NCBI GenBank assembly: GCA_963999385.1
Contig: CAXEUS010000233.1
Span: 1-35,770, forward strand
Source: an uncultured Candidatus Poseidoniales archaeon
GTDB lineage: Archaea > Thermoplasmatota > Poseidoniia > Poseidoniales > Thalassarchaeaceae
Direction: 5' to 3'
Length of the DNA stretch: 35,770 nt
How positions within the stretch are numbered: the stretch's first letter is position 1; the number at the start of each line of letters is the position of its first letter. Positions 3,671 to 29,042 of this stretch are shown piece by piece. The notes beneath the pieces are model-generated. The model had not been told where the DNA came from, searched no databases, and saw nothing but the letters and a program-made list of their open reading frames with translations. The translations under genes and the position numbers were made by a program.

Positions 3671-6600
3671 CTATTGCTGTTGGAAGTGCGTTGCATACTG
3701 TTGCGCGTATTGACGTGCTGTCTCCTCAGGGTATCCCTGAGCGATGAGCTGCTGGACGTAGGCCTCCATCGGGTCCATATCCTCGATTCCGCCGAATCCT
3801 TCGACGTCAGCGGTGCCACCCTTGCGCATGCGCAGCATGAACAAGGTTGCGAGCACGACGATTAACAGAGCCAACGCAGCGATTCCAGCATAGAGCATCA
3901 TGTTTCCAAGGCTGCCTCCTTCATCACCCGTCTGGGTCTCAGTTCCAGAGCAACCGTCTGCATCGGGGTCGGCAACACATGGGTCCTCGTCTTGGACCGG
4001 CACCAGGTTGACATCGATGCGCTTCCAAAGCACCCAGTTCTGCCCGTTACCTTCGACTACCTTCACCCAGATGGTCTGCACCTGACTCTCGTTGGTGTAG
4101 AGGTCCTCAAGCTTCAGACCCATGCTGAACGTCGACACACAGTCCACGGTGGCGGTGCTCGTGTCACACAGGTTGTTGGTCGAGTTGTACTTGCCCAGAT
4201 TCATCTGCTGGAACTTGTCGGCGAGCGTCTGGTTGAGCACATCGGGATTGAGTGATACCTCGACGAGGATGTCACCGTTCTCGCTGCCCGAGAGCACCGA
4301 GCCGTTCACGTAGACGTAGTCACCCGATTGTGTCGAGCCGTCAAGAGGTGTGCTGATCTCCACCTCAGGGGGTTCATCGCCCCAGTCTTCAGGAACAACG
4401 ACGAAGAACATGTAGTTCTTGGCGCTCTCCCGACCGGCACGATCGACCACAACCAGTTCTATGCGAATCGTGTTCTCGTTGAATCCAGAAGGATCAGCAG
4501 TCTGGTTCCAGAAAGTGTAGGTCCAGTCACAGCCCATGGCAGAAGTACGCTCGAACTCGTGGTTGGCCTCGGACACCGCGTTCCACGGATAGTCAAACAG
4601 AACCTTCCACTTGTACATCGTGATGCCGGATTCGCCATCGGGCGCATCCGGGTCCTGCGAGGCACAGGCGTCGAACTTCACCTTGACATCATTCGAAGAG
4701 GAAAGCTTGGCCAGATGAATCGGCCAGTCGACTGCTCCCACTGTCTTGTTGCCATGGTCGGTGAGGCTGTCCGGATAGAACGGATGCTCCTCGACGATGA
4801 CGCTCGCCACAGGTGGTGAGGAATCAGCGAGGATGTCGTTGGTGGCCAGTTCGATGGTGGTGATGCGCGTGTGGCCCTCTGCGTCGTGCAGGAACAGCGT
4901 GATTGTCCATGTAGCGTCCTGACGGCAGCCACTGGCCTCCTGGGTATCGATACGGCAGAAGGTAGCAGAGTGGTTCTCGTCAGCTCGGTGAGCGTAATCC
5001 TGGTTCGGGGTGAACAGGTTTCGCTCCCAGTCGGTTGCACCACTGATATGCCAATCTGCATCGAGTCCGGATACGGTGGAGTTGTATCCAAAGGATAGCG
5101 CTGTGTTGCTCTTCATGTAGTAGGTGAAGTCGTAGACACCGTTGCCGTTTGCCTCTGTCGGTACCTCATCGTTGATGGTCATGTCCCAGCCTGCGCCGGC
5201 GATTCCGAATCCGAGCGGATAGGGTGTCACCATGAACTTCAGTAGGTTCGAGCGCAGCGGTGCAGCGGTGCTTCCGAAGTCCTCGGACACCGATGGGTTC
5301 TCCACGTCAATGGTTGTCACAATCAGACCTCCACTACCGATGCCACAGGTGGCAAGCAGGGTCATCGTCGAGTCATCAGCGTGCTGTATGATGCTGTGGA
5401 AGCGTCCCTGCTGCGTGTTGATCATCCCACCACTGCAAGCGTTAGGCAACTTGTTGAGACCGGTGGTTGCGGTTGACAGAGCAGCGTTAGCGACGTGGTC
5501 GCCGTTGTTCATGCCAAGCCATGCGGTCGGCGATACGTCTGCCAACAGCGGGTGGTATGGGTCGACGATAGCCAAGTCGTCATGCTCAATCTGAGTGCCG
5601 GAGGTGTCCCGGTTGAGGATGTCCATCTCGTAGAGCAACTTGCCTGCGTCGCTGTCGGACTCAGCGTTCGGTCCGACGTGCATCTCAACTGTACCGCCCG
5701 CGAGCATGAAGTTCTCCAGTGTGTTCTGCAGACCGGTCTCGCCCAGTTCCTGGTAGTAGGAGCCAGCGATGACATTGGCATTGGTCTGCCACGGCAGCAG
5801 AATCTTCTGGTAGTGCGACAGCCAATCATCGTCGAAGTAAGTGTCCCAGTCTCCTTGGCGGTACTGAGTGTAAGTCATGCCCATTGAATCGAGGTCCTGC
5901 TTCACCTTCTCCAGCCGGTTCTGGTCGGTCGTGCCCGACAGAATGGCGACATCGATGTTGTCGTAGAAGGTGATGGTGAAGTTACGCATGTTGCCAGACG
6001 ATGTGCCGTCAATCAGTTCAGCGTAGAACTGGATGTTGTAGGTATGGCCGTCCAGCCAGCCTGTGTAGGGCTGGAAGGTTGCGTTGCTGCGAGCGTGCGG
6101 GGCCAATGTCTGCGGGCTGTTGGTAGAGGCGATTGGCGTCTCTGCGGTTCCAGTGCCGACATCGGTAATCTGCATGAAGACGTTGTAATCTCCTTCCAGC
6201 ACGCCATTGATCAACTCAAGTTCGAACTGGTGGGTCTTGGCGTTGTCAATTGGATATGCGCAAGGCATCGAGACATCCTCGACACAATCGAGTACGTTCG
6301 GTCGCAGTAAAGTCACATCGACAGACGCTACCTCGAAAATCATGCGCGAGAGGTTGTTCCCTAGGGTCACCTCCGCAACGTTGGTCCAGTTGTTGCCCGC
6401 GGTCACATTGTCGAAGTGACTCATCACATCGACGCGATATATGCCCTGTTGGAAGTTGTGTGTGCCGACGGTCAGATTGACCTCTTCACGAGCATCCAGA
6501 TCGGTCACGCTGGCTGAGTAACTGGTGTCCAAGGTGAAGGTGTACTCCTGCACGGTGATGTTGTCTACGGCGAAGCCGGCGAAGCCGCTCTGACCGTTTA

Positions 6601-9600
6601 TTCCGTCTGAGTTGGTCTGGAAGCGGAAGGTCAGAGTTACCTGTGCTCCCTCCATCGTTGTGCACTCGGTGCGCCAACTGGACGAATCAGGAGAACTGCG
6701 GTTCTGGATGACGAGGTGAGTCAGGTCGAGTGTGACCGACTTCACGACGCCCTCGGAGTCGAACCAGACGTTCCAGCCATGGTCGCCAGTGAACTCTACC
6801 TCGTCGAACGTGCCGTCGTCGTCGATGTCCTCACAGGTCTGATTGATGCCTTGGATACCATTCTCGTTGTAATCGTTCCATGAACCGTATACCAGTCCGT
6901 CGTAACTCTGCGCGCCCTTGCGCCATGTGATTTCCATGCCAGCGAACTCATTGATGCCAACAATATCTCCTTCAGAGTCAGTCAGGTAGTCTGCCTCGGC
7001 GAAGTAGTCGAAGGAGAGGTAAGCGAAGTCACCCGCCATGTTACGCAGGTCAATCTCCTGTAGCGTCATCGATTCGTTCCAGTCGTCCCCATATCCATCG
7101 TCGGGATGTCCGAACCAGTAGGCATTGGAGCCGAACACCGGACGGTTGCCCGGAACAATGGCATTGGAGATGGTTGAGGCGGTGTCATCTACGACTACAC
7201 CGAAGTTGTCGCCGTCGTCACCGAACATGTAGGCGCAATTTGACGGTTCGAAATCCTCGAGTTCCTTGCACGGATTCTTGAACAGTGCGTTTGGCTGCGC
7301 CTGGTAAATCGTTGCTTCGACATCGAAGTCGACCAGCGTGTTGCCAGCGTGCTCGGCGATGACATCGATGGGCATCTGACCAGCGGCGTAGAGTTGACCC
7401 TTCTCGAACGAGGTTATCTCGCGTATCGCGGGGTCGTAGAGGTTGAGGACGGTAGCCTTGAATCGAGTCAGATCGTTGGTGTCGTCCTCGTTGACGAATC
7501 CAGATGTCGAGGTAATCTCTCCCCCGATGATGTACGTCGTGTTGTTGACGAAGTAGGCATTCAGACTGACTTCCTGCTCGTCACCGGGCGCGAAGTTGTT
7601 CAGGTTGACGTTCTGCTGCACGGTCTGCTCCTGCCCATATTGGGTCACCGTCTTGGTGATTGAGATGTTGTCAATCGCCATTCCGTCAAACTGCGTGTTG
7701 CGCGATTCGTTAAGCAGGCCGACACTGCCATAGAAGCCAGAGCGGAAGCGGAAGCGGATGTCGATGTTCTCGCCAGCCCATTCGGTCAGATCGAGTGCGC
7801 TGTCATCGGTGAAGTTGCTCCACGAGTAGTTTGTTCCACCGACGTGAATCAGACGGCGGGTGTACTCGATGTAGCCACTGTCAGCGAGTTCAGCAAAGCG
7901 GACGGCATCATATCCGCCCTCGTAGAGGACAGGTTCCCAGCCACCGTCATCGGTGTAGATGTCGATATTGCACGAGTCGTCGTAGATGAGCATCCCGGCG
8001 AACGCGCCGTTGCTGTAGACGTAGTTGATTGTCGAGTAACCCGATGTGCAGAAGAGGTCGACCTCCAACTTGGCGGAGTCCGATCCCGACAGGTCGACAT
8101 CGTGCAGGATAATCGCTTCGTCCTGCCATGAGACGTAGCCACTCTCCAGATTGTTGTTGTCGCTGGAGTTGGCGTACATCGTGCCCGCCCACATGTAATC
8201 TGTGGGGTTCACATCGGCCTCGTAGCCCTCACCGTTGCTCGTCATGTTAGCTGCACTCTCTTCGTGCCAGTAGAGCCCCTCTCCGTCGTAGTCAGCCGTG
8301 GACCAAGTGCATCCGGCGCCACAGTTGGAGATTGGAGTGTTGTCGTAGTCGTTGGAGTAAACGACGGTGTCTGTGCCGCCGATGACCTCCTTCACAGAGG
8401 CTTCGACCGTCAGGCTGCCACTGATGACATCCAATCCGGTGTTGGACACAGTCACGTTCACGTTGCGATCGCCCTCACCTAGCGTCATAAGCAAGGTATC
8501 AGGATTGAACGATGCTGGTGATGCGGACATCGACGAGATGCCCACATCCTCGTTGTCAAGCTGGATGATGGTGACCGCATCTTGCGAACCACAGCCGCCC
8601 AGACCCTGCAGGTTACTGTTGATTCTGTCAGGGAAGCAGCCCTTGGTGTCGAGCCACCATGCGCCATTGTTGAACTGGAATCGATAGTCACGATTGCCCA
8701 CCGCTAGGTCGAGCGCACTGCCCGAACCACCGACGAACTGGCCGACGAGTACCATCGTCGGACGACGTCCGACATCCATCGACTGCGGGCTGTGGTAGCC
8801 ACCGCTGCCGTCAGAAAGCATAATCTGCACGGTGTTCAAATCGTCCAAGTTCTCAATGTTGAGCGAAGTGACGGTGTTGCCGCTGGCTCCGGTAAGGCTG
8901 GTCACGGTCAGGTAAGTCGGGACGACGAAGTCCATTTCCCCGTCCTGATTGATGTCAGCGATCTTCAACGAAGCGCCGTAGTAGTCACCGATGTGGACGG
9001 TGGGTCCGGTGGCCCACCCAGACTGCGTCGCGCAAGGAGCGGAGGCGCAGGAGATGTAGGTGACAGTGGAGGCGTTGGTCATGGCGACCATGTCGATGAT
9101 TCCGTCTGCTGGAGAATCGGTGTCCGCGATATCGAAGTCGCCGTACTCCACTCCAACCTTGAAGTCGTGCGCCTTGCTGGGGTCGTTGAACGCGGAGAAG
9201 GTGTTCAGGATGCAATCGAATTCGATTACCGATATGTTGTCCCAGTCACCAGCGCCCCATCCCGTAGCCGGATTGTAACCGGGCCAGACGAGCATCCATG
9301 CGTCGAAGTCAACGCAGTCCTGCGTGCCTGGCAAGCTGCTGACACTCTCACCCCAGTCACCCAGCCGCAAATCTCCGTAGACCCTGTTAGCGAAGTTGTC
9401 CAGTTGAGTCACCTTGTGATTGGTGGCTGCGTTGTTGCGATTCGAACCACCGAGGAAGGTCATCAAGCGCTGTTGACCAGAGGCAATCGACTCAAGGTCA
9501 ACTCCCACAATATCGTCGACGCCATCGCCGTTGAGGTCTGCAATCTGGAACTGCCACACGATGTCTCCCATAGTGTGTACCGCATCCTCGACGAACGCTC

Positions 9601-10063
9601 CGTCGCATTCGGGATTGGTCAGAACAGTCAGATTTCCTTTCACCACTTCAGCGGCGCCATAGACCTGAATGTTTCCTTGGTAGAAGACGATATCATCGTT
9701 GCCGTCTCCATCGATATCACCTACCTCGACATTGGTCGCATCGGCCATGTCCATCCAATCCTGACGCCGGGAAGCATTGTTCGATACCCAGATGTCAGAG
9801 CGTTCCTGATAGGTTCCGCCATCGTTCCACAAGATCGACAGGAAGTTACCCATGTCGCTTGCCGTTACGATGTCCTCATCGCCGTCACAATCGAAGTCGC
9901 CAGTGGCGAGGTCGGTAGGGTCACGAGCGACCGGATAGTGCTTCGCGTTACTGGCAGACACATCTACTGCGCCCACCATTACCGAGAGTACCATCAAGCC
10001 GACCAGCAGCAGGCTGCGGCGGCGCACATTACTCAGATTCAATTCAGTTGCATGATTCATCAT
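3671..10063 (-). CDS. Giant (2130 aa) type-I membrane-anchored surface protein. Order: FG-GAP/VCBS propeller, CARDB/Ig-like and MAM-like jelly-roll modules, GATase1-like module, C-terminal TM helix, 53-aa tail.
   Basis: Signal-like N-terminus: RRRSLLLVGLMVLSVMVGAVDVSA. Repeated FG-GAP calcium-loop motifs: DFDCDGDEDIV, GDIDGDGNDDIV, ADLNGDGVDDIV, ADINQDGEMDFVV. CARDB-like strands: NVNVTVSNTGLDVISGSLTV. There are two jelly-roll modules ending IDIRFRFRS..GMAIDNISITK and VTLTFRFQT..GFAVDNITVQE. N-x-S/T sequons are numerous. The C-terminal TM helix MMLYAGIAALALLIVVLATLFML is followed by RMRK and a tail. Confidence 0.9.
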   Translation of the reverse strand: MMNHATELNLSNVRRRSLLLVGLMVLSVMVGAVDVSASNAKHYPVARDPTDLATGDFDCDGDEDIVTASDMGNFLSILWNDGGTYQERSDIWVSNNASRRQDWMDMADATNVEVGDIDGDGNDDIVFYQGNIQVYGAAEVVKGNLTVLTNPECDGAFVEDAVHTMGDIVWQFQIADLNGDGVDDIVGVDLESIASGQQRLMTFLGGSNRNNAATNHKVTQLDNFANRVYGDLRLGDWGESVSSLPGTQDCVDFDAWMLVWPGYNPATGWGAGDWDNISVIEFDCILNTFSAFNDPSKAHDFKVGVEYGDFDIADTDSPADGIIDMVAMTNASTVTYISCASAPCATQSGWATGPTVHIGDYYGASLKIADINQDGEMDFVVPTYLTVTSLTGASGNTVTSLNIENLDDLNTVQIMLSDGSGGYHSPQSMDVGRRPTMVLVGQFVGGSGSALDLAVGNRDYRFQFNNGAWWLDTKGCFPDRINSNLQGLGGCGSQDAVTIIQLDNEDVGISSMSASPASFNPDTLLMTLGEGDRNVNVTVSNTGLDVISGSLTVEASVKEVIGGTDTVVYSNDYDNTPISNCGAGCTWSTADYDGEGLYWHEESAANMTSNGEGYEADVNPTDYMWAGTMYANSSDNNNLESGYVSWQDEAIILHDVDLSGSDSAKLEVDLFCTSGYSTINYVYSNGAFAGMLIYDDSCNIDIYTDDGGWEPVLYEGGYDAVRFAELADSGYIEYTRRLIHVGGTNYSWSNFTDDSALDLTEWAGENIDIRFRFRSGFYGSVGLLNESRNTQFDGMAIDNISITKTVTQYGQEQTVQQNVNLNNFAPGDEQEVSLNAYFVNNTTYIIGGEITSTSGFVNEDDTNDLTRFKATVLNLYDPAIREITSFEKGQLYAAGQMPIDVIAEHAGNTLVDFDVEATIYQAQPNALFKNPCKELEDFEPSNCAYMFGDDGDNFGVVVDDTASTISNAIVPGNRPVFGSNAYWFGHPDDGYGDDWNESMTLQEIDLRNMAGDFAYLSFDYFAEADYLTDSEGDIVGINEFAGMEITWRKGAQSYDGLVYGSWNDYNENGIQGINQTCEDIDDDGTFDEVEFTGDHGWNVWFDSEGVVKSVTLDLTHLVIQNRSSPDSSSWRTECTTMEGAQVTLTFRFQTNSDGINGQSGFAGFAVDNITVQEYTFTLDTSYSASVTDLDAREEVNLTVGTHNFQQGIYRVDVMSHFDNVTAGNNWTNVAEVTLGNNLSRMIFEVASVDVTLLRPNVLDCVEDVSMPCAYPIDNAKTHQFELELINGVLEGDYNVFMQITDVGTGTAETPIASTNSPQTLAPHARSNATFQPYTGWLDGHTYNIQFYAELIDGTSSGNMRNFTITFYDNIDVAILSGTTDQNRLEKVKQDLDSMGMTYTQYRQGDWDTYFDDDWLSHYQKILLPWQTNANVIAGSYYQELGETGLQNTLENFMLAGGTVEMHVGPNAESDSDAGKLLYEMDILNRDTSGTQIEHDDLAIVDPYHPLLADVSPTAWLGMNNGDHVANAALSTATTGLNKLPNACSGGMINTQQGRFHSIIQHADDSTMTLLATCGIGSGGLIVTTIDVENPSVSEDFGSTAAPLRSNLLKFMVTPYPLGFGIAGAGWDMTINDEVPTEANGNGVYDFTYYMKSNTALSFGYNSTVSGLDADWHISGATDWERNLFTPNQDYAHRADENHSATFCRIDTQEASGCRQDATWTITLFLHDAEGHTRITTIELATNDILADSSPPVASVIVEEHPFYPDSLTDHGNKTVGAVDWPIHLAKLSSSNDVKVKFDACASQDPDAPDGESGITMYKWKVLFDYPWNAVSEANHEFERTSAMGCDWTYTFWNQTADPSGFNENTIRIELVVVDRAGRESAKNYMFFVVVPEDWGDEPPEVEISTPLDGSTQSGDYVYVNGSVLSGSENGDILVEVSLNPDVLNQTLADKFQQMNLGKYNSTNNLCDTSTATVDCVSTFSMGLKLEDLYTNESQVQTIWVKVVEGNGQNWVLWKRIDVNLVPVQDEDPCVADPDADGCSGTETQTGDEGGSLGNMMLYAGIAALALLIVVLATLFMLRMRKGGTADVEGFGGIEDMDPMEAYVQQLIAQGYPEETARQYAQQYATHFQQQ
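8654..9931 (-). other. FG-GAP/VCBS (integrin-alpha-like beta-propeller) repeat region of the 2130-aa protein, residues about 45-470
   Basis: At least five D-x-[DN]-x-D-G-x-x-D-[IF]-[IV] loops are spaced 50-70 aa apart. I checked coordinates against the DNA: GDIDGDGNDDIV is encoded at 9686-9721 on the minus strand. Confidence 0.7.
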
Positions 10064-10196
10064 ACGAGGCGCCGACTCTAGGTTCTCTTATTACTCCTTT
10101 CGTGCGCGTGTGCGTAGGAACCGTCAAAGATTGCGACGCAGTGTAACGTTTATTCAGTGAGCGAACTGTTCGCCGAGACCATTCAAAATAACATTC

Positions 10197-10865
10197 TCAG
10201 GGGGCATCCATCCAGGTAGGTTCGGGGCCATATCCCAACCGTTCTCCTCCGTGAATCTTAACCAGCCTTCCGAGCCGATGCTGAGCCTCAAGCCAGCTCT
10301 CTAGAACACCCTCATCCATCTCGATTCGATCACCGATAGCCTCGAAGACGACCTCTACAGGAAGTCCCATCACTCCAAAACGACGCACTGCGATACGAAA
10401 CAGTTCCCGAAGCCACCCCTCAGCCAGCGGCTCGCTGCTGGTGAATCCCTCCGGAGGCTTCGGAGCCTCGTCATAATCGTCGAGAATCTCCGCCAGTTCG
10501 TCTCCTGTCGGTGAACTTGGTTCATGGAATCCGAGTTTACGAATCTCCTCATCCAGATTTACGCCACCGATTGTTCTTCGGCGCTCTGGAAGCAGTGAAG
10601 GGTCAGGAGGTGGCCCGACGAGTTCGGGCTTCTTTGACTCTTTCTGGGGCTCTTGGCTAGTAGCGCTCGTGCCAGCGTCAGTTCGTTCGGAACCATCCGC
10701 TTGCAACGGTTGCAACCATCCTACATCTTCGAGGCCAAGTTCCTGCCGCCAATGCTCCACCCATTCAGTATCACCCTCCAACAGCACTTCGACATCATCA
10801 TCCATATCGCGAAAGCGATAGCGAACCGGTCCGGAGATTGATGCCATCAGTGGATTTCCTCCCAT
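10197..10865 (-). CDS. Small acidic soluble protein of unknown function embedded in the giant-protein array (222 aa, or 216 aa from ATG 10847)
   Basis: There is no signal peptide or TM helix. The N-terminal roughly 45-aa domain (VRYRFRDMDDDVEVLLEGDTEWVEHWRQELGL) is followed by a P/E/S-rich linker. A C-terminal roughly 80-aa helical region looks winged-helix-like: WLRELFRIAVRRFG, PVEVVFEAIGDRI, LESWLEAQHRLGRLVKIHGGERLGYG. GGAGG lies 10 nt upstream of the second ATG (10847), which may be the true start. Confidence 0.7.
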   Translation of the reverse strand: MGGNPLMASISGPVRYRFRDMDDDVEVLLEGDTEWVEHWRQELGLEDVGWLQPLQADGSERTDAGTSATSQEPQKESKKPELVGPPPDPSLLPERRRTIGGVNLDEEIRKLGFHEPSSPTGDELAEILDDYDEAPKPPEGFTSSEPLAEGWLRELFRIAVRRFGVMGLPVEVVFEAIGDRIEMDEGVLESWLEAQHRLGRLVKIHGGERLGYGPEPTWMDAP

Positions 10866-10911
10866 TCAGTCCATGAACCAAACGACGGGCCATGCTGGGA
10901 TGTTATTGGTC

Positions 10912-13900: not shown

Positions 13901-16689
13901 TTGAGATGACCCCAATCGACGCCCGTCGATGAGGAGTATGTCCCTTGAGAGGGCCAGCTGTTCTGCAGCAGACCCTTGGGGATGTTGATGGTGAGGCCAT
14001 AGTTCGGAATCTCCGAACTGTTGATCACCATAATCGTCACACCGCCCAGTGACACCGTCACATTACCGGCGCCCCAGAACAATGGCGGGGGGAGGTGCAG
14101 CCATCCATCGGCGATTGGCTTCGCATCGACTGGTACCCACAGGCGCGACTCAGTGTAACCCAACTGAGCATAGTCAGATCCGTTTTCTCCAAGCCCGAGC
14201 GAGCCTGCGAAATGCATCACTGGATTGGCTCCTGGTGTGTTGGAGAGGTCAAGTGAAAGGTCGTGCACAGTCTCCCAGTGGTAATTGCTGCTGTTGAAGG
14301 AGATGATACGCGGCGTCGTGTTGTTATCGAGCGATGATAAGTTGAGTTGTAGCTGCATCCAAGTGAACAACGGCACATCTGTTCCGGACAAGTTCACAGG
14401 GCTCCAATCCGACCAGGTACGGTTGTCTACCGTCCAACGCATCGAGCCGTTGACCGACGTGTTAGCAGGGATGTTTGCGGCCAGACTGAAGTGCGTCCCA
14501 ATGTGCACTACATCCTCCTCACCGATAAGTGGACTTACCCAAGTTCCGTTGAGCGCATACGTCGGCGTGCCTCCCCAACCTGCGAAAGCTCCGGTGAAGG
14601 CAAAGCCAGCGTTGCCATTGTCTCCCGCCACACCAAAGGAACCGCTTCCGTAAGGCCAACCAAGTGCGCCGCCGGTCCCGCCATCGGCATGGTAGACACC
14701 ATTGTTGGTGAGTCCATTGGCAGCAAAAGCCACCAAGAGACGGCCTCCAGAACCTCCGCCGCCTCCATCACCACCGTCGTATGCTCCCGCTCCCGGACCG
14801 TTCTGAGCGCCGTTGGCTCCATCTCCGCCGTCGCCGCCATCAGCGGAGAGCAATGCGTTGAATCCAATCTCGACCGTGTTCGCCATCACCGTGATTGAGC
14901 CGCCGCTGCCACCACCCGCGCCGCTTCCACCGGGCCCGGAGCCCGTCTGTGGGCGCTGGCCATCATCTCCTTGACTACCGTCAGCGGAGACTGTTCCATT
15001 GATGACGATGGTGCGAGCAATCAACTCGATGACTCCGCCACCTAATCCTCCAAGGGCGTCAACAGAAGTCTGATTGTTGATGATAGAGGTGACATTTCCA
15101 CCACTCGAGCCGGGCTCAGAGCCGTTACCATAGAGACTCCCACCAGAACCACCGGTCGGGCCGCCCCCGTCCCCACCGGTGTCGCCATGTCCACCACCCC
15201 CGGCACCATCGCTGCTGCTGTTGGCACCTTGGATGGTCGAACCGCCTTTTCCGTAGCCTCCAGAAACGACACCGTCAGAGATGATTGAGGCGCCTTGCTC
15301 GATGACAATCATGTTGGCGCTGATGCGTAGCGGTCCGGTGGCGCTGATCGAGCCACAGGTCTGACCCTGGCAACTGATTCGGAGCGTGTCGTAGGAGTAG
15401 TTGCCACCCATCTGCACAGGTTGGACAATGTTGCGATTGACAAGGCCTGCACCGGGAACCATGCTGCCGCCCGAGGTGTTCAAACGCAGATGACCGAAGA
15501 CATCGATAGTCGTGCCATTGAAGGCCGAACCCTGAGAGAATAACAGCATCGAATTAGAGTCGTTGTCCCACTTCTGGTAGGCGCCGGCGGTCACGTCGAG
15601 TTCAGCCGAATCGGCTCGGGATCCGGGGCGATGCGGCAGCGTTGTTGATTCGTCAAGGGCGGGGTGGAGAATGACTGAGCCGTTACCGTTACCAAAAGTG
15701 GTCACTGTATTCGTATTCCGCATCCAAGGGTAGTACACATTGGGAGTATTGTTGAACACCGTCATCGCTGCTGCTTGCTGCAACTCCAGTGTTCTGGTGG
15801 CATTCAACCCACCAGGGCCAATCAGTCCAACAGGGTCATCGCCAGTGAGTGTAGCGTAGACAACACAGGTTGCAAGGTAACTTCCTGAGAGTGAAGGATG
15901 GCTTCCATCGGATGTGTAGAGGTCGTGGAACAGCGTTCCCGAATCCTCCGGGGTGCCACCTTGAGCGACAATTCCGTCGTAGATGTGCTTGAATGCGAGG
16001 CCGGCTGGGGCTATCCAAGCGGGACGACCTGGTGTCGATACATTCTCCGCGTAGAGCCGGTACCCCGAATCCAGGTGAGCCTGCATCGTCAGGTAGTCTG
16101 GGCTGCGCCACTGATTCTGTGAATCTCCGTCGCGTCTTCCCCATGTCATCAGGAATACTGTTTCAGCACCTTGAGCCTCAATCATGCCATCGAGGACGAT
16201 AGCGCCGTCCTTGCTATCCTGCCAGTACTGGCTTGAAGTGGGCGGGAAACTCGGTACCTGACTCTGGTCCTGAAGGATGACCCAATCCCAGTTCCCGTTG
16301 TTCAGCGTGGTGTTCCACTGATGACCAGCAGTCTGAGCACGGGTTGCGTGTTGGTCGAGTCTGAGTCCACCAGCCGCGAGTCTGTCCGCGTTTGTGCTTG
16401 GACTGTTCTGCTGCAGGGCGCTCTCAACCAATCCATCGAGGTTGTTGCTCTGAGTGTAGGAATTCCCCATGAAGAGAACATCCAATCCTTGCTGACCAGA
16501 ATTCATGGATTGGTCTTCATCTGCCAAAGTTGGATTCGGGGGCGCATCAAATGGTTGCACGAAGCAGATGGCAGTCGTGCTGAACAACATCAGAGCAGCG
16601 AGAATGAATGCATTGCCTCGCATGCGCTGGGCCATAAGGCCCAGCGCTACCCCGCCATTGATACCGATTCCGGCTCCCTGTTGAGTCAT
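10912..16689 (-). CDS. Giant (1925 aa) type-I anchored surface protein. Order: SGNH/DUF4886-like esterase, Gly-rich beta-helix-like module, stalk paralogous to the upstream gene, second SGNH/GDSL esterase, Ig-like modules, TM helix, 86-aa tail.
   Basis: Signal-like MRGNAFILAALMLFSTTAICFV. The C-terminal TM helix VALISLLLIVIGLLILVGY is followed by a tail ending LPPGGQFIQDGSTTTYIDADGKQWLKDEEGGFTRL. Domain evidence is given in the sub-features. The start could be ATG 16689 or the internal MAQRMRG. Confidence 0.9.
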   Translation of the reverse strand: MTQQGAGIGINGGVALGLMAQRMRGNAFILAALMLFSTTAICFVQPFDAPPNPTLADEDQSMNSGQQGLDVLFMGNSYTQSNNLDGLVESALQQNSPSTNADRLAAGGLRLDQHATRAQTAGHQWNTTLNNGNWDWVILQDQSQVPSFPPTSSQYWQDSKDGAIVLDGMIEAQGAETVFLMTWGRRDGDSQNQWRSPDYLTMQAHLDSGYRLYAENVSTPGRPAWIAPAGLAFKHIYDGIVAQGGTPEDSGTLFHDLYTSDGSHPSLSGSYLATCVVYATLTGDDPVGLIGPGGLNATRTLELQQAAAMTVFNNTPNVYYPWMRNTNTVTTFGNGNGSVILHPALDESTTLPHRPGSRADSAELDVTAGAYQKWDNDSNSMLLFSQGSAFNGTTIDVFGHLRLNTSGGSMVPGAGLVNRNIVQPVQMGGNYSYDTLRISCQGQTCGSISATGPLRISANMIVIEQGASIISDGVVSGGYGKGGSTIQGANSSSDGAGGGGHGDTGGDGGGPTGGSGGSLYGNGSEPGSSGGNVTSIINNQTSVDALGGLGGGVIELIARTIVINGTVSADGSQGDDGQRPQTGSGPGGSGAGGGSGGSITVMANTVEIGFNALLSADGGDGGDGANGAQNGPGAGAYDGGDGGGGGSGGRLLVAFAANGLTNNGVYHADGGTGGALGWPYGSGSFGVAGDNGNAGFAFTGAFAGWGGTPTYALNGTWVSPLIGEEDVVHIGTHFSLAANIPANTSVNGSMRWTVDNRTWSDWSPVNLSGTDVPLFTWMQLQLNLSSLDNNTTPRIISFNSSNYHWETVHDLSLDLSNTPGANPVMHFAGSLGLGENGSDYAQLGYTESRLWVPVDAKPIADGWLHLPPPLFWGAGNVTVSLGGVTIMVINSSEIPNYGLTINIPKGLLQNSWPSQGTYSSSTGVDWGHLNVRSASAVPYGSYFLIEQVAIPYQLTQRIGTNSSLVNAMTAHAISTSGGWPSADFPSFPLTASGDALDEHAITLSNLNITYIDDIAPSVVDVTFVIAGTEVTSARVGDMVEMRVRVLNNESNLLMNWHVEGLSTISSWPPASLGNMTWDTLHNAYTAVYDTSVFSVEYGDSMALWIWMEDAVGNQRHPVGVGNWYDLFVLRPVYPELIGSTTSGCIVVTSANVCQVEPGDIVTLHTEAELGRTDLYVRALMFNASNNSDPFEVFLPWDADTKEYRGSFVPWASDFGFLNVEYIAIDPNRNERSWYYWNPVETRPFVFQITVVDQTNPTEISFSVQQQGIAADGWRINASWIQQASDSTNGSFTVDDGGPIPLPLTEQMEISPVLSYVALGSSTAAGEGASDGNHSMVGIINSSLGQKFESVRLSNLSQDGGRVQDFRGKWSEISSSNPDIVTILPFADYSSSSTAVWNSNYPQLLDDITSTGAHVFFGALRIDPEYICHIGSGPGGCYSFYEFEAISEKNKILRDIVSTRPNVTIVPIIDSNAEHPEWFTSDGNHPNDLGHAYLADLFLHEIQGWLGTRTVVQNASVQYDISGLHPGNHDLELHVVDGANNTASDLAPGADATMYLEADSDILSVEIIHPTDSAILEPRPVLFRVDTGCAIGCTVQLEIEVDGELVHTAATDGILEWYGDWEQFGFGQHRVVATVRTQDWNVPIRTATSEFSIIEPARPEWSTQCESSEHTTSIDGMSRFGRMGSISVTSHTQECVVTNIGEINGTLQFLGGPSDSKSPFNCGPYEPVEVVASDSIRFECYAEENSSHSGIHALIFEIVRVLPSNHWTGNSTESVHGPVEYRLYLADPVFKPYTDQTTDDDIELGEEPDLESTSGIPGPAKVALISLLLIVIGLLILVGYNRWKDAQDPYAQPEHKQSLFGIDPPNPLESEFDEGGQSLEQGMKSVSSSHGLPPGGQFIQDGSTTTYIDADGKQWLKDEEGGFTRL
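12175..12753 (-). other. SGNH/GDSL-hydrolase domain 2 of the 1925-aa protein, residues about 1313-1505
   Basis: Block I is YVALGSSTAAGEG (encoded around 12715-12747). The block II-like segment is LSQDGGRV. Block V is FTSDGNHPNDLGHAYLADLF (D-x-x-H). Confidence 0.6.
14560..15372 (-). other. Glycine-rich, beta-helix-like module (unassigned family) of the 1925-aa protein, residues about 440-710
   Basis: Rungs recur in the pattern hydrophobic-x-hydrophobic-x-G-x-[IV]-x-[AS]-DG, followed by G-rich turns. Examples: ISANMIVIEQGASIISDG, GGGVIELIARTIVINGTVSADG, GGGSGGSITVMANTVEIGFNALLSADGGDGGDG, GGGGGSGGRLLVAFAANGL. The module is collinear with residues about 115-416 of the next gene. Confidence 0.5.
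15820..16488 (-). other. SGNH-hydrolase domain 1 (DUF4886-like) of the 1925-aa protein, residues about 68-290
   Basis: Block I is VLFMGNSYTQ (Ser nucleophile, encoded at 16453-16482). Other blocks are DWVILQDQSQ and TVFLMTWGRR. Block V is DGSHPSLSGSYLATCVVYATLTG (Asp/His). The pattern matches my memory of DUF4886/SGNH family proteins. Confidence 0.7.
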
Positions 16690-16704
16690 CTAAAACGATG
16701 GAAA

Positions 16705-19700
16705 CTAGTTTCTGCGCCAACTGCCACCATGCTCGCACCACCACCAGTTCTCGTCAGCGTCGACGTACCACATGCCCTCAGGCACCTCCTCGTAGCGGCC
16801 ACCCGGAGGCAGTTCTTCGTAGGAAGCGACCCAGTCCGGTCCTTCGACCACGGGGGTAGGCTCGGAATCGGAGACCTTGAGGAACTCGGGCTCGGTAAGG
16901 ACTCCTGCAATCCCTGTTGCAGCAGTACCATACTGATCATCCTCTTCATCGTCACTTCGCTGCTTGCGCATGAGCAACAATCCGGTTCCCAAACCGACAG
17001 CGAACAGCGCAATCAACCCGAAAACAGCGCCTGCAATCGCCATTGTGGACAGTCCCTCATCCTCAGCGGAATCAAGGGATCCTTGGACTTCTTCGCTGGC
17101 TGGTTTCAGAGAGGCGATGAACGACTGCTCTGAGCCTATTCGATGCCAGTTGCTGACATGGTCCTGCCACTCGAATACAGCAGTGGTGCTGACTTCGGTG
17201 ACCTGTTCTACCTCCCCCTCAGTGCGGCAGGTCACTTGGAGCGAGTTGCCAACCAGTACGGTCTGAGCAGTGGTCGGTGAGCAGATGAACTTGGGGTGAC
17301 CGCTCGTGACTCTGAATCTGACCGTTGAGGACACCTCACCCATGTTGTTCACGTTGCAGATGAACTCTCGATGTCCTGCAAGAGACATGTCCGGGTCATC
17401 TACGACGCCATCGACACAACTCGGGAGAGAGAACAGGGGGTCGGGTGGTGTGACCACTGTGATGTGACTCATCTCAGTGATACTCAGGTCACCCGCGCTC
17501 AACGTGAAGAAAAAGCTGACATCGCCGACTTCAGTAAGCGTCCGGTTGAACTCGATCGTGCCATTGGACAGCCCTGCCAGACTCTCTTCTTCCAATGACA
17601 TCGAACAGCCGTCGTTACAGGAGATGGCGAGCCGGTAAGTCACTGTGTCACCGAGAACGAACTCTGACCCATTAGCGGGCTCCAGTAACTCTAGCGTGAG
17701 CTCCCTTGGCGGAACAATCACCAGTTCACCGTCAGGCCCGGGAAGCCAATCAGGAGCGGGGTTTCCAGCACTGTCCTCCAGTGACACCTCCAGATGGTAA
17801 CGTCCGGGATTAGCATCAGTCGTGTCCCAGTCGGCGTAACCAATTGTATCCGAGGTACTGTAGACCAGTAGTCGGTCGACATGTTCTCCGGAATCAGTGG
17901 ACACATCTACCGCTGCACTGATGCTCTCCCCTGTCTCAGCGGACCATTCTATGCTGGTACGCCAAATCGTGGGGTTCGTTGGTGACCAATCGAAGGATAC
18001 AGTGACCAGATTCGGAGCGAGACGGTCAACGATGGTGACGGTCGCATCGATACTTGGTCGCGCGCCATCTTCGTCCATATCAGAGAGTTGCGTATCTACT
18101 AGTTTGACCTCGAGGTCCCACGCCCCGAAGTCATAGCGTCCGGTTGACCAGACACCGGTGTAACTCGCTGTGGAGTCATTCCAAACAAGCGGGATAGAGG
18201 TCACTAGACCGCCTTCGCGGCGAGTCAACTCCACGGATGCATCGAGCGCTGCGCGGTCGGTTATCTCCTCGACTGTGAAAGTGATCGGCTCGTCATGACG
18301 CCAGGAGCCGGTCAGCATGCCACCTGAGATAGGTCCGCTGCTGCTGCTCAGAACGAAATCAGACACCACAGGAGGTCCGGGCAGGATGCGGACCTGCAAT
18401 GTGGGAGAAGGACTGGCGGAGTTGCCGAAAGCATCCTGCATGTCGCATGAGAAATCGAGCAGGGTCTCTGAACCAGAACTTGCATACTGGGCCGAATCAT
18501 ACTGAAGATGGTACGCTTGGTTCTGCTCGTCCCAAACCATCTGGTCGGGAGCAGTGGTGCTGTTCTGACCACTCTGTACAAGTTGACACATGATGGTAAG
18601 GTCCTGCTCGCCGATCTGATCGGTTACCCAGAAGGTCAGCATGTCACCGTAGCGGGCATCTGTGGTCTCGGCTCCATCCACTTCCATCTTCACGTCATCT
18701 AAGCGAGGAGGGATGTCGTCAATGGCTGTAACAGCGAGATTGGAGATGGTGATGTGTAAATCGAGAACGGAACTGATGCCAGTGGCCATCACTGGGAAGT
18801 AATCGCGGCATCCCTGCACCAGGTACCACTCAGTGCATTCAGCCTGCACCATTGCATCGATACCTGATACGAATTCACCTCCGCTGCCCACCCGGTGAGT
18901 CAAGTTCCACGGCAGACTGAGGTGGCTGAACACGGGGTTTGGCATCTCAGAGGTCCAATTCAGTACCAGCCAGCCCCATTCCATTCCCGATGCATCACTG
19001 CTACCAGAGGTTGGCCAAGCAACGGACAGCGCCTGTGCGGGGAGGGCGATGTCATGGGCGGTGTCATTGTTGTCTACCGAAGCTAGTTGAGCACGCCCAA
19101 CGCTCAGTGTCACGTTGTTCGCCTGGTTGAGGCCCAATGCCGAGAGAAGAATCCATCCGTTCTGCGGAACGGCAGCGAGAGGGACTGGAATCTCAAGAGC
19201 GCCGTTGTACGGACTACCTACTGATGGAGGAGGACCAGACGTGCTGCGCCATTCGATGCTGTGGAACAACCGCACGCCATTACCCAAGAGATCCCGCCCG
19301 TTGGTATCGCCTACGCGCCAATCATCTGTTGCGGGTGGACTGTTGGTGATGGATAAGGACAGAGGTCGGTCACCTTCGAGTGCTGCCCACCACCATGCAT
19401 CGTAGGAGAGGCCAGTGAGGGATGGTGTCGACTGGTTCGAACTACTGTTCAGATTGAGGCGTAATTGGAAGTAGAGCAAGCGTTCGGTCGATTGTCTAGT
19501 CAAGTTGAGAGACTGCCATGTACTCCAGGTGACGTTGTCCATGGTGGTGCGGAATTCACCGATGACTCCCGTACCACTAGGTGTGACACTGTTGACACTG
19601 ATGTTTGCTCCTTCAATGATAGAACCGACACCCAGAGCTGCGCTGGTCCAAGTTCCGTCGAGTACGCGCTCCGTTCCAGACCAGCCAGCGAATGTGGTCG

Positions 19701-20922
19701 AAATCTGTGATGACCCGGAAGTACCGCTGCTTCCAGCCCTACCGGCAGTGCCACTTCCGTAAGGCAGTCCACCGGTTCCGGCAGAGCCGGCGAACACCGA
19801 GATTCGTCCTGTACCATTGAGGCCATTCGCAGTGGTTGCGATGCTCACGGAACCTCCGCCACCACCGCCACCACCATCGCCGCCATCGTACATCAACAGA
19901 CTGATTGGCCTCTGACGCATGCCATCGGAACCGTCCCCTCCATCACCACCCATTGCGCGGATTGCGCCGGTTTGGCCCCAAATGACATAGTCGGCAATGA
20001 TGACCACCGAGCCGCCCGAGCCACCACCCGCACCAGCAATTCCCCTACCTCCATTGGTAGGATTGGGGGCATCTTCTCCATCATCGCCATCCGCGGAAAT
20101 CGTACCATTGATGTAGATTATATTCGCCTTCAAGGTGATGAGGCCTCCTCCTCGGCCACCCGCTGATTTCACTGTCGTCACTCCAGCAGAGTTCGTCTGG
20201 GTAACGTTGCCTCCTGAGGAACCGGGCTCGGTGCCGTTACCGTAGGACATGTTGGTATTGTTGCTGTTTCCACCTCCAGTGCCTCCCGCACCAAGGTGAG
20301 CGCCCCCATTGGCACCCACGCCAGAATTACCTGCATGGTTACCCGACGCACCCTGCCCGGGGCCGCTCCAGACGGTTCCGTCGGAACGAATCGAGCCATT
20401 GGCTTCGATGATGATCATGTTCGCAGTAATATGCAATTGTGGCCCCGTGGAATTGATCAAACCAGATACGCGCACCGTTCCATACGAATGGTTGCCTGCC
20501 GTGTTTAGAGTTCCTTGGACATTCAGTGTACCTCCCCCGGCTCCAGGGGGTCCACCAGTGCCGCCTCCGGCGTAGGCGAGTTGCAGCCCGTTGGGTGTTA
20601 AGGTGACATTCTGGTTCGTGGAGTTGGATGACATCTGCTGTAAATTGAGTGAGGAGTTATCCCACTCCTGTTCCGGGTGACCACTGAAATCGAATTCAAC
20701 CTCGGTGATTCTGGTTCCATTGGTATAGATGATTGACGTGGTCTCATTGAGGGAAGGGCGCAGAATCCTACTTGCTGGAGGATGCTTAGTGGAACTCGAC
20801 TGCTCTTCCTCACTGTGAATCGCGCCATTCTCTACTGATGCAGGGAACTGGACGATGACGCTGCTCAGCATAAGGAGACTCAGCAACAGCGCGAGCCGAC
20901 TGTGCGTGTACTTCCTGCTCAT
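16705..20922 (-). CDS. Giant (about 1405 aa) type-I anchored surface protein, tandem paralogue of the 1925-aa protein without the esterase domains
   Basis: The ORF track extends this ORF to 21291, but residues 1-123 overlap the 3' end of aconitase and look like non-coding translation. ATG 20922 gives a typical signal sequence, MSRKYTHSRLALLLSLLMLSSVIVQFPASV. ATG 20952 is an alternative start. The TM helix MAIAGAVFGLIALFAVGLGTGLLLM is followed by an 87-aa tail ending LPPGGRYEEVPEGMWYVDADENWWWCEHGGSWRRN. The stop lies 15 nt upstream of the next giant gene. Confidence 0.85.
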   Translation of the reverse strand: MSRKYTHSRLALLLSLLMLSSVIVQFPASVENGAIHSEEEQSSSTKHPPASRILRPSLNETTSIIYTNGTRITEVEFDFSGHPEQEWDNSSLNLQQMSSNSTNQNVTLTPNGLQLAYAGGGTGGPPGAGGGTLNVQGTLNTAGNHSYGTVRVSGLINSTGPQLHITANMIIIEANGSIRSDGTVWSGPGQGASGNHAGNSGVGANGGAHLGAGGTGGGNSNNTNMSYGNGTEPGSSGGNVTQTNSAGVTTVKSAGGRGGGLITLKANIIYINGTISADGDDGEDAPNPTNGGRGIAGAGGGSGGSVVIIADYVIWGQTGAIRAMGGDGGDGSDGMRQRPISLLMYDGGDGGGGGGGGSVSIATTANGLNGTGRISVFAGSAGTGGLPYGSGTAGRAGSSGTSGSSQISTTFAGWSGTERVLDGTWTSAALGVGSIIEGANISVNSVTPSGTGVIGEFRTTMDNVTWSTWQSLNLTRQSTERLLYFQLRLNLNSSSNQSTPSLTGLSYDAWWWAALEGDRPLSLSITNSPPATDDWRVGDTNGRDLLGNGVRLFHSIEWRSTSGPPPSVGSPYNGALEIPVPLAAVPQNGWILLSALGLNQANNVTLSVGRAQLASVDNNDTAHDIALPAQALSVAWPTSGSSDASGMEWGWLVLNWTSEMPNPVFSHLSLPWNLTHRVGSGGEFVSGIDAMVQAECTEWYLVQGCRDYFPVMATGISSVLDLHITISNLAVTAIDDIPPRLDDVKMEVDGAETTDARYGDMLTFWVTDQIGEQDLTIMCQLVQSGQNSTTAPDQMVWDEQNQAYHLQYDSAQYASSGSETLLDFSCDMQDAFGNSASPSPTLQVRILPGPPVVSDFVLSSSSGPISGGMLTGSWRHDEPITFTVEEITDRAALDASVELTRREGGLVTSIPLVWNDSTASYTGVWSTGRYDFGAWDLEVKLVDTQLSDMDEDGARPSIDATVTIVDRLAPNLVTVSFDWSPTNPTIWRTSIEWSAETGESISAAVDVSTDSGEHVDRLLVYSTSDTIGYADWDTTDANPGRYHLEVSLEDSAGNPAPDWLPGPDGELVIVPPRELTLELLEPANGSEFVLGDTVTYRLAISCNDGCSMSLEEESLAGLSNGTIEFNRTLTEVGDVSFFFTLSAGDLSITEMSHITVVTPPDPLFSLPSCVDGVVDDPDMSLAGHREFICNVNNMGEVSSTVRFRVTSGHPKFICSPTTAQTVLVGNSLQVTCRTEGEVEQVTEVSTTAVFEWQDHVSNWHRIGSEQSFIASLKPASEEVQGSLDSAEDEGLSTMAIAGAVFGLIALFAVGLGTGLLLMRKQRSDDEEDDQYGTAATGIAGVLTEPEFLKVSDSEPTPVVEGPDWVASYEELPPGGRYEEVPEGMWYVDADENWWWCEHGGSWRRN
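19675..20580 (-). other. Glycine-rich, beta-helix-like module (unassigned family) of the ~1405-aa protein, residues about 115-416
   Basis: Rungs: ITANMIIIEANGSIRSDG, GGGLITLKANIIYINGTISADGDDG, GGGSGGSVVIIADYVIWGQTGAIRAMGGDGGDG, GGGGGGGGSVSIATTANGL. The shared block YGNGTEPGSSGGNVT (Y codon at 20242-20244) corresponds to YGNGSEPGSSGGNVT in the paralogue (Y codon at 15130-15132). Confidence 0.5.
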
Positions 20923-20974
20923 CGGACATATCTGCCCACTGTCATTCACCATAGTAGTTGGCAATGGAAGATTG

Positions 20975-20991
20975 GGCGCCCATAGGGCGCC
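20975..20991 (-). terminator. Perfect GC hairpin immediately after the aconitase stop codon
   Basis: ggcgccc (20975-20981), ata loop, gggcgcc (20985-20991). This is a 7-bp all-G/C stem with a 3-nt loop, starting 1 nt after the TGA at 20993-20995. No clear U-tract follows on the minus strand. Confidence 0.35.
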
Positions 20992-20992
20992 A

Positions 20993-24845: not shown

Positions 24846-25011
24846 TGAAAATAGAGAGGTGTACGGTATATCGCGTCCAAAAAAGAGGAAATTCATGACT
24901 ACGTGTGCAACACAAAGTCTCAAGTCATGAAGTATACGCGGAACAGCGTGAGGGCGAGGGAACCCAGCGGGTGAATCAGAGCAACCAAGTCGTCAGGGGC
25001 ATTTGGAAAGA

Positions 25012-28714: not shown

Positions 28715-28719
28715 GAGGT

Positions 28720-28791
28720 AGTCCCTCCCGGATTCGAACCAGGGTCGGAGGCTCCAGAGGCCTCCATGATGGACCGCTACACTAAGGGACT
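28720..28791 (-). tRNA. tRNA-Gln: tRNA-Gln (anticodon CUG), archaeal type
   Basis: Minus-strand sequence: AGTCCCT TA GTGT AGCGGTCCA TCAT G GAGGC CTCTGGA GCCTC CGAC CCTGG TTCGAAT CCGGG AGGGACT A. It folds by hand into a cloverleaf. The acceptor stem has 7 bp with A1-U72. The D stem has 3 bp plus a U-U mismatch. The anticodon stem has 5 bp with loop C-U-CUG-G-A. The T stem has 5 bp with a GTTCGAATC loop, and the discriminator is A. CCA is not encoded (the sequence continues CCT). The 3' end lies 5 nt from the AKR stop codon, in convergent orientation. Confidence 0.85.
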
Positions 28792-28821: not shown

Positions 28822-29042
28822 AACGCCACCCCACAACATGCGGAAGGCGTACTTGGACACCCAGCCTAGCATGAGCAGCGTCATGAACCAAGCGAGCGAT
28901 GTGCGAGCGATGCGCCCGTTGCGTTCCTTACGGTGCCGATCCCGTTCCTCTTCTGCAATCAGCGGAGCGAGCGGGTCAGCGCGGCTCATGCTAAGCCGGA
29001 GCGGGCGACAGGCTTCAAGCGGTGCGCAGTGTGGGCGACGAC

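Follow-up and report, generated by a model that had tools for sequence, protein, structure and literature searches.

We analysed a stretch of 35,770 nucleotides (nt), hereafter the window, from contig CAXEUS010000233.1 of a member of the Thalassarchaeaceae (Poseidoniales, Marine Group II archaea). Members of this group are uncultured and rank among the most abundant archaea of the surface ocean. A 17-kb block on the minus strand of the window contains four genes, which encode three giant proteins, G1, G2 and G3, and one small protein, S. We lean towards the reading that this block is a conserved slot of the core genome, which holds an S-G1 pair found throughout the order together with zero to two copies of a separate, accessory G2/G3 family. 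What is new about the giants is the make-up of their tails, which are built from two cassettes, a UBA-like hairpin in G1 and a folded beta module of 38 amino acids (aa) in G2 and G3. The four genes are the following:

3671..10063, minus strand: G1, an open reading frame (ORF) of 2130 aa, the core surface giant of the Poseidoniales.
10197..10865, minus strand: S, an ORF of 222 aa, or of 216 aa from the probable start at 10847.
10912..16689, minus strand: G2, an ORF of 1925 aa, an accessory surface protein with a G3-type scaffold and two predicted SGNH esterase domains.
16705..20952, minus strand: G3, an accessory surface protein of 1415 aa (start at 20952) or 1405 aa (start at 20922).

Gene order was compared by tblastn mapping over 85 loci, namely 80 loci fetched from 344 S-encoding stretches of species-representative genomes and five metagenomic loci. 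The order is collinear: KorA (minus strand), cyclophilin, aconitase, a position that may hold G2/G3-type genes, S, and G1 (then S-adenosylhomocysteine hydrolase, AdoHcyase). Each of the 81 loci covering both genes has S directly upstream of G1 and in the same orientation, with a median gap of about 177 nt. The slot between aconitase and S was covered on both sides in 72 loci, 60 of which lack a G2/G3-type gene while 12 have one, and because so many slots hold no such gene the four genes cannot be one obligate unit. Two G2/G3-type copies, and with them the full four-gene order, are present in the window and in loci L006, L057, L088 and L090; the copy number in the slot thus ranges from 0 to 2, and both copies occur only in the closer relatives of the window. 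G3-type genes were also found in quite different places: after the SecY/ribosomal-protein cluster (L086/L096), in a surface-protein island that also encodes a CARDB protein and an S8 peptidase (L087/L098/L099), and at further positions outside the slot in L093, L094 and L097. S-G1 is therefore the core pair, and G2/G3 form an accessory, multi-locus family that is often, not always, inserted between aconitase and S.

The S family is confined to the Poseidoniales, with relatives in 344 species-representative genomes. A HMMER profile of S run against 1.84 billion cluster representatives retrieved 117 representatives, all of them of at most 255 aa, and no distant relatives or domain fusions; S was absent from phage and viral collections. 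The contigs listed as carrying S relatives are labelled Poseidoniales, Thalassarchaeaceae, Poseidoniaceae or generically archaeal (metagenome-assembled genomes, MAGs, of Thermoplasmata or Euryarchaeota), with the exception of one mislabelled contig. The latter (L039, contig CAXRJJ010000119.1) belongs to a MAG labelled Yoonia sp., an alphaproteobacterium; it has the full block of KorA, cyclophilin, aconitase, G3-type gene, S and G1 and was probably mis-binned. Full-length G1 orthologs (35-92% identity, about 2080-2300 aa) were likewise found only in Poseidoniales, and elsewhere G1 gave only local FG-GAP matches. G1 is single-copy, order-wide and syntenic. The two accessory giants, G2 and G3, are paralogs that align over about 1000 aa with 32% identity, and also at their C-termini, whereas BLASTP detected no similarity between G1 and either of them.

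We next considered how the block may be transcribed. The genes are separated by gaps of 15 nt (G3-G2), 46 nt (G2-S) and 133 nt (S-G1), and the segment 3671-20922 fills 48% of the window. As called, the open frame of G3 runs from 16705 to 21291 on the minus strand, but its start is limited to 20952 or 20922 because aconitase ends at 20993. The start of S is more likely Met7 (10847, 216 aa), since both the homologs and the database gene call begin there, with a GGAGG located 9 nt upstream. An exact look-up of the 222-aa ORF returned no record, as the database gene call begins at Met7. Three putative signals were found around these starts:

10087..10101, minus strand: BRE/TATA-like element in front of G1, GAAAGG-AG-TAATAAG, positions -38 to -24 relative to the ATG.
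10869..10879, minus strand: promoter-like element upstream of S, GGTTCATGGAC, with the consensus GGTTCAAAGACC in relatives.
20975-20991, minus strand: GC-rich hairpin GGCGCCC-TAT-GGGCGCC with a perfect 7-bp stem, directly past the aconitase stop codon, between aconitase and G3.

Upstream of G1, an A/T-rich heptamer falls within -45 to -19 in 76 of 76 unique loci and begins at -38 to -31 in most. The A/T fraction is 0.62-0.68 at -40 to -26 as against 0.36-0.38 at -20 to -11, and the alignment reads AAAGG, then ATTAAAG, ATTATAT or GTAATAAG. Judged by what is established for archaeal promoters, this element resembles a pair of B recognition element (BRE) and TATA box positioned for a leaderless mRNA. 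Upstream of S, 71 of 74 unique loci have the tetramer TT[CG]A between -42 and -26, compared with 9 and 20 loci for control windows, and the element is present whether aconitase or a G2-type gene lies upstream. Conserved sequence blocks flank both promoter-like elements; by eye, the upstream regions of S and G1 have no motif in common. A scan for bacterial sigma-70 promoters and intrinsic terminators, which is ill-suited to archaea, gave counts no higher than in shuffled sequence. Different but analogous hairpins follow aconitase at other loci, for example ACGGCCC-TCT-GGGCCGT in L019, and because different hairpins occupy the same place in other lineages, the hairpin suggests a conserved structural terminator or processing site. 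The 15-nt gap between G3 and G2 fits co-transcription. Since G1 and S each possess a position-conserved promoter-like element of their own, we take the block to consist of no fewer than three transcription units, one each for G3-G2, S and G1, and the four genes are probably not carried on one transcript.

An earlier note, made from the letters of this DNA, had described three giants and a small gene on the minus strand with the spacing and coverage given above, and the ORFs match this description, with 1405-1415 aa for G3 and 216-222 aa for S. The note had also assigned to all three giants a signal-like N-terminus, an ectodomain dense in N-x-S/T sequons, one C-terminal transmembrane (TM) helix and a tail of 53-87 aa. 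Topology was called from Kyte-Doolittle windows and positive-inside residues, which agree with that assignment: each giant has one N-terminal hydrophobic, signal-like segment and one C-terminal TM segment, and the predicted tails are 53, 86 and 87 aa long. The tails were placed in the cytoplasm because basic residues directly follow each TM helix (RMRK in G1, NRWK and RKQR in the other two). Sequons proved to be enriched in all three: 32 in G1 compared to 22.3 expected from shuffles (P=0.018), 43 in G2 compared to 17.9, and 28 in G3 compared to 13.2, with 0 of 2000 shuffles reaching the observed number in either of the last two. Six cytosolic neighbours have 0-3 sequons each. No NCBIfam model of PGF-CTERM or another sorting signal matched any of the three giants at E<=0.1, in agreement with the note. 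These features support the view that the three giants are all glycosylated surface proteins of type-I topology, anchored in the membrane and with a conserved tail in the cytoplasm.

The note had further named FG-GAP, CARDB/Ig-like, MAM-like and two SGNH modules in the ectodomains, together with a Gly-rich module that might be a beta-helix. When Pfam and NCBIfam were run on the four proteins and on isolated tails and domains, only FG-GAP (in G1) and GDSL (in G2) passed. The FG-GAP region and both SGNH domains thus stood, the second SGNH domain by a PDB match and its motifs, whereas the CARDB/Ig-like and MAM-like modules found no support from hidden Markov models (HMMs) of Pfam or NCBIfam, nor from ortholog profiles. 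PDB sequence searches with single sequences and with ortholog profiles returned 4s1p for the head of G2, weak propeller matches and weak C-type lectin matches, and nothing else. The remaining observations of the note, short conserved motifs in the tails and a small soluble protein of no recognisable family, were both borne out, as described below.

G1 is acidic in composition and consists of the signal-like N-terminus, an FG-GAP propeller region, a long ectodomain, of which about 1600 aa have no family match, the TM helix and a UBA-like tail:

8624..9934, minus strand: FG-GAP/VCBS propeller region of G1, about aa 44-480 with approximate outer boundaries (Pfam FG-GAP_3 and FG-GAP, E 1.6e-8).
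3833..3889, minus strand: TM helix of G1, aa 2059-2077 (Kyte-Doolittle 2.78 over 19 aa), then RMRK.
3689..3775, minus strand: module A in the G1 tail, aa 2097-2125, DPMEAYVQQLIAQGYPEETARQYAQQY, a UBA-like helical hairpin.

The propeller assignment exceeds the Pfam cutoffs (35.4 bits against 26.9 for FG-GAP_3, 34.6 bits against 22.1 for FG-GAP), and orthologs behave likewise. Two to three Pfam stretches were recognised, together with four calcium-loop-like motifs, D-x-[DN]-x-[DN]-G-x-x-D, at aa 56, 116, 176 and 370, hence between aa 56 and 378. BLASTP comparison of G1 with itself revealed no internal repeats. An apparent short paralog of G1 (P0130) was rejected, as it is a split gene at the same locus. 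In the long-read polished assembly of L089 (9001-15920), G1 falls into two pieces, of 1436 and 874 aa, which may be a frameshift artefact or a pseudogene.

In its layout G1 recalls integrin alpha and the prokaryotic FG-GAP-VCBS surface proteins: FG-GAP repeats with calcium-loop-like motifs at the N-terminus are followed by a long stalk outside the cell, after which come one C-terminal TM helix and a short cytoplasmic tail of high conservation. A tail read by a cytosolic adaptor would be integrin-like in its working. The likeness is however confined to the propeller, where the G1 ortholog profile matched those of CRTAC1 and integrin alpha weakly (E 0.01-1, thus at least 0.01). We considered and rejected G1 as an integrin alpha proper, with thigh and calf domains, a GFFKR motif and a beta partner: integrins were matched only in the propeller (E>=0.12), the tail reads DPxExYVQQLIAQGY, a UBA-like hairpin, instead of GFFKR, and no beta subunit is evident.

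In the G2/G3 family, G3 represents the minimal scaffold, orthologs and paralogs of which share 42-100% identity. G2 amounts to G3 with the addition of an N-terminal SGNH head and an internal GDSL domain:

15847..16485, minus strand: N-terminal SGNH/DUF4886-like head of G2, aa 69-281 (PDB 4s1p, E 4.3e-7; GNSY and DGSHP motifs).
12202..12747, minus strand: internal GDSL/SGNH domain of G2, aa 1315-1496 (Lipase_GDSL_2 E 2.6e-10, Lipase_GDSL E 2.9e-5; GSST and DGNHP motifs).
14590..15372, minus strand: Gly-rich module of G2, about aa 440-700, common to G3 and within the G2-G3 aligned block.
19693..20445, minus strand: Gly-rich module of G3, about aa 170-420, numbered from 20952.
11173..11229, minus strand: TM helix of G2, aa 1821-1839 (Kyte-Doolittle 2.95).
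16969..17025, minus strand: TM helix of G3 (Kyte-Doolittle 2.34), a helix also in the AlphaFold2 (AF2) model.

The internal domain of G2 scored 41.5 bits with Lipase_GDSL_2 (cutoff 32.9) and is missing from G3, the alignment of the two proteins skipping G2 residues 1294-1517. The N-terminal head had no Pfam match in G2 itself; in the paralog P0152, DUF4886 was matched just under its cutoff (E 1.1e-5, 25.0 bits, cutoff 26.7). Heads vary across the family: there is none in G3, a DUF4886/SGNH head in G2 and P0152, and a C-type lectin (Lectin_C) in P0153 and P0154. The weak C-type lectin matches of the PDB profile search probably come from such lectin-headed members. In the Gly-rich module, many Gly columns are invariant (alignment A4). 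As in SGNH/GDSL hydrolases, DUF4886 included, both G2 domains have the block I Ser and the block V D-x-x-H, and one of the two lies above the Pfam threshold. With the catalytic Ser and D-x-x-H motifs retained in both domains, G2 probably acts as an esterase tethered to the surface. Unlike the usual enzymes of this class, the domains are inserted in a membrane-anchored scaffold of 1925 aa, and the heads of paralogs are a C-type lectin or none.

The cytoplasmic tails were then compared among relatives. The block 2081-2120 of the G1 tail reaches a conservation of 0.70 over 77 aligned orthologs (protein mean 0.57), a value exceeded by only one block of the ectodomain. Its core, DPxExYVQQL[IV]AQGY[PD]ExTARxYAxQY, is nearly invariant across the 77 orthologs, and one large ortholog group has module A in duplicate. 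Like UBA and TS-N domains, the module (YVQQLIAQGYPEETARxYAQQY) fits UBA helices 1-2 including the hydrophobic-x-x-L-x-x-x-G-[YF] loop; unlike them, it has no evident third helix, scores below threshold (Pfam UBA, PF00627, E 0.025 and 0.0016, 14.9 and 18.6 bits, cutoff 22.4) and is located on the tail of a surface protein. That it binds a ubiquitin-like partner would be pure conjecture. The tails of G2 and G3 end in a different module:

10918..11031, minus strand: module B in the G2 tail, the last 38 aa, LPPGGQFIQDGSTTTYIDADGKQWLKDEEGGFTR (tail-built HMM, E 3.4e-17).
16711..16824, minus strand: module B in the G3 tail, LPPGGRYEEVPEGMWYVDADENWWWCEHGGSWRR (tail-built HMM, E 4.5e-20).

The pattern LPxGGx[YF]...G...Y.D...W...G.[FW].R terminates every G2/G3-type protein with an intact C-terminus and always lies at the extreme C-terminus. 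In the AF2 model of the G3 tail, the TM helix is followed by a disordered spacer and then by module B, predicted as four short strands with a pLDDT score (predicted local distance difference test) of 89-96. We also considered a WW domain and rejected it: WW entries appeared only at Foldseek E 2.8 and 5.6 (probability <=0.10), isolated tails had no Pfam match at E<=10, and the first signature Trp is replaced by Gly in LPPGG. The resemblance was dropped as a claim because Foldseek of the G3 tail gave nothing significant. Two loci, L001 (4648-9711) and L014 (2858-8455), have a G2-type gene in the slot that lacks module B, which suggests that this accessory gene is under decay or remodelling; in L001 the S-G1 gap is unusually long, about 800 nt (10627-11432).

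Both modules were also found on proteins unrelated to G1, G2 or G3. They stand in tandem, A then B, in a 1041-aa protein (L087, 2942-6067, plus strand) and again in L099 (3-1514, plus strand), and module B ends an unrelated CARDB protein of 1561 aa (L087, 17303-21988, minus strand). The genes of these unrelated proteins lie grouped with those of an S8 peptidase and a lectin-headed G3-type protein. Because the modules occur on unrelated surface proteins too, the tails look like reusable cassettes, shared by several different surface proteins of these archaea.

S has no TM segment by Kyte-Doolittle, no sequon, and no Pfam or NCBIfam family; it is strongly acidic, with 46 D/E and 23 K/R. Its AF2 model (overall pLDDT 72) shows an N-terminal beta-beta-alpha-beta unit (residues 13-53), a low-confidence linker, predicted to be disordered, and a winged-helix C-domain (residues 146-219, pLDDT about 89) with the topology H1-(strand)-H2-H3-wing. 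The linker, which includes the peptide GPPPDPSLLPERRRTIGGV, carries an invariant motif, G84-P-P-P-D-P-S...R97-x-I-G (alignment A1). Foldseek matched the model only to generic winged-helix domains, those of regulators as well as protein-binding modules, with a best E of 0.013 and none at E<=0.001. By topology and neighbours, the C-domain is akin to the MarR/ArsR regulators and to the protein-binding domains of Hop2 and KAT6A. In contrast to winged-helix regulators, S belongs to no sequence family, has an acidic recognition-helix region, adds a unique N-domain and a proline-rich linker, and is restricted to the Poseidoniales.

How the four genes should be understood depends on the weight given to their arrangement. 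The earlier note had proposed one co-expressed apparatus for capture and hydrolysis, in which S would be the common intracellular docking subunit for three tails. The genes are indeed co-directional with tight 15-nt and 46-nt gaps, the four-gene order persists where S is only about 53% identical (for example in L057, and in L088 and L090 too), lineages labelled Thalassarchaeaceae and others labelled Poseidoniaceae both have G2/G3-type genes in the slot, and S carries a proline-rich motif, invariant in its family, that could be set beside an aromatic-rich beta module in the tails of G2 and G3. Yet 60 of the 72 loci have S and G1 and an empty slot, G3-type genes lie far from S and G1 in unrelated contexts, the tail modules of G1 and of G2/G3 differ while the ectodomains are unrelated, and S and G1 have separate conserved promoter-like elements. 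We therefore regard the one-apparatus proposal as very unlikely: of the synteny it had predicted, the S-G1 adjacency is there and the constant presence of G2/G3 is not, and the promoter-like elements at S and G1 speak against a single co-expressed unit. Its further statement that these are not three unrelated adhesins is right for the paralogs G2 and G3 and does not extend to G1. At the opposite extreme, the block could be a hypervariable island in which unrelated adhesin genes have come to lie together by chance. The variable copy number of G2/G3-type genes in the slot is of that kind, but the idea is extremely improbable given that S and G1, for which it is already contradicted, are adjacent in 81 of 81 loci, that the region is collinear core genome and that G2 and G3 are paralogs.

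Other readings concern the function of the core pair. It is possible, if doubtful, that G1 is the S-layer or main envelope glycoprotein, S a neighbouring core gene of unrelated function, and G2 and G3 ordinary variable adhesins or exoenzymes. Giant S-layer proteins occur in other marine archaea, for example the protein of about 1700 aa of Nitrosopumilus maritimus. Like these and the surface-layer glycoprotein (SLG) of Haloferax volcanii, the giants are large, acidic, signal-bearing, predicted to be N-glycosylated and anchored by their C-terminus in the membrane, and G1 in particular is single-copy, order-wide and syntenic, with enriched sequons and a strong-looking conserved BRE/TATA-like promoter placed as for a leaderless mRNA. 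The parallel fails in that neither PGF-CTERM, which with ArtA anchors the Haloferax protein, nor any other archaeosortase signal or known S-layer anchor or domain was matched, and in that a conserved or folded tail of 53-87 aa comes after the TM helix; a near-invariant, folded-looking cytoplasmic tail is unusual for an S-layer protein and implies a cytosolic partner. The literature searched holds no description of the envelope of Marine Group II archaea. An unlikely alternative is that S regulates transcription as a winged-helix protein, with G1 or S itself as a possible target, the adjacency of S to G1 being a linkage of regulator and target and not that of structural partners. In its favour are the C-domain with its MarR, ArsR/SmtB, Fur and BlaI/MecI neighbours in Foldseek, the position of S directly upstream of G1 at every locus covering both, and the conserved blocks flanking the promoter-like elements of the two genes; a counterweight comes from the absence of any regulator family by sequence, Foldseek E values that are all >=0.013, and upstream regions of S and G1 that share no motif by eye. 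By inspection, homologs vary in the recognition-position helix (185-197, VLESWLEAQHRLG) and in the stretch leading into it, and the residues there are acidic or hydrophobic, which, with the acidic composition of S, leans against DNA binding. Docking of S on tails is plausible, although a winged-helix C-domain would fit a regulator too.

We also considered a bolder extension, in which many type-I surface giants of this lineage would carry folded tail modules A and B, sometimes in tandem, to be read by dedicated cytosolic adaptors. S would then bind the G1 tail through its winged helix or its N-domain and offer GPPPDPS to module B, in analogy to the coupling of integrins to their adaptors, and the surface would thereby be connected with the interior of the cell, whether for anchoring, clustering, sorting or signalling. 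As a whole, this scheme seems distinctly unlikely.

Several observations also weigh against the core-pair-plus-accessory-family reading that we prefer, or against its parts. The housekeeping genes around S-G1 are as collinear as the pair itself; since the pair sits inside a long collinear block of core genome, its adjacency alone is weak evidence of a functional link and may reflect only conserved gene order. Conversely, the slot is repeatedly occupied by G2/G3-type genes in lineages of both labels, Thalassarchaeaceae and Poseidoniaceae, which may mean that a real link to S-G1 is underrated. The UBA match of module A is sub-threshold and covers only profile positions 2-21 of 37, that is, two of three helices, and Foldseek of the G3 tail model found no significant match in the PDB for module B. 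Reuse of the cassettes outside the G1 and G2/G3 families was seen only in one kind of surface-protein island, sampled at three loci (L087, L098 and L099). The topology was read from hydropathy windows and flanking charges, and the winged helix is the commonest fold of archaeal transcription factors. Lastly, the literature searched contains no description of the locus, of G1 or of S; the one FG-GAP preprint it returned concerned viral genes.

In the flanks of the window lie genes for aconitase, cyclophilin, 2-oxoacid:ferredoxin oxidoreductase and AdoHcy hydrolase. The cyclophilin (23721-24923, minus strand, 400 aa) belongs to the order-wide collinear block, upstream of aconitase, and has an N-terminal extension of about 150 aa and a hydrophobic segment (about aa 160-180) before its peptidyl-prolyl isomerase domain. 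Because of this segment it may be membrane-anchored, and it could serve as a foldase for exported proteins. The window and its closest relatives, L006 and L009, are alone in having a gene for a DUF3754 membrane protein (2298-3536, minus strand, in the window) between G1 and AdoHcyase; at an unrelated locus, a homolog (L094, 2328-3512, minus strand) is situated some 1.7 kb upstream of a G3-type gene. The window also has a single tRNA gene (28719-28791, minus strand, Rfam tRNA 55.6 bits) and encodes a 518-aa fusion of a NUDIX domain and a metallo-beta-lactamase domain (29022-30578, plus strand). Two antisense ORFs, of 429 aa inside G1 (8792-10081, plus strand) and of 270 aa across the G2/G3 junction (16321-17133, plus strand), have translations of low-complexity appearance, rich in Arg, Val and Gly, and probably arise as side effects of the GC-rich coding strand rather than being genes.

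Taking the preferred reading of a core S-G1 pair joined by an accessory family, a working scheme may be suggested. The three giants would be exported by Sec, N-glycosylated and anchored at the cell surface by their TM helix, with the tails inside. G1 would act as a constitutive envelope or adhesion protein of integrin-alpha-like layout, while G2/G3-type proteins would be optional Gly-rich scaffolds with a stalk, displaying interchangeable N-terminal heads (SGNH esterase, C-type lectin or none), G2 adding a surface-tethered esterase activity. Cytosolic partners are implied because module A is extremely conserved and module B is predicted to fold; they would read the two cassettes and anchor, sort or organise many surface proteins beyond these three. 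S would be the best candidate partner of G1, since it is cytosolic, lineage-restricted, always adjacent and endowed with a conserved linear motif.

For the biology of Marine Group II archaea, G1, a 230-kDa, order-wide protein with a strong-looking promoter and a near-invariant intracellular tail, provides a specific candidate for the role of main envelope or adhesion protein. The G2/G3 family illustrates a way in which esterase or lectin heads, exchangeable with one another, may be fastened to the surface of these cells, which bears on the processing of algal organic matter. Together with S, a protein of no known family, the reusable tail cassettes suggest an undescribed way in which archaeal surface proteins are coupled to the cytoplasm.

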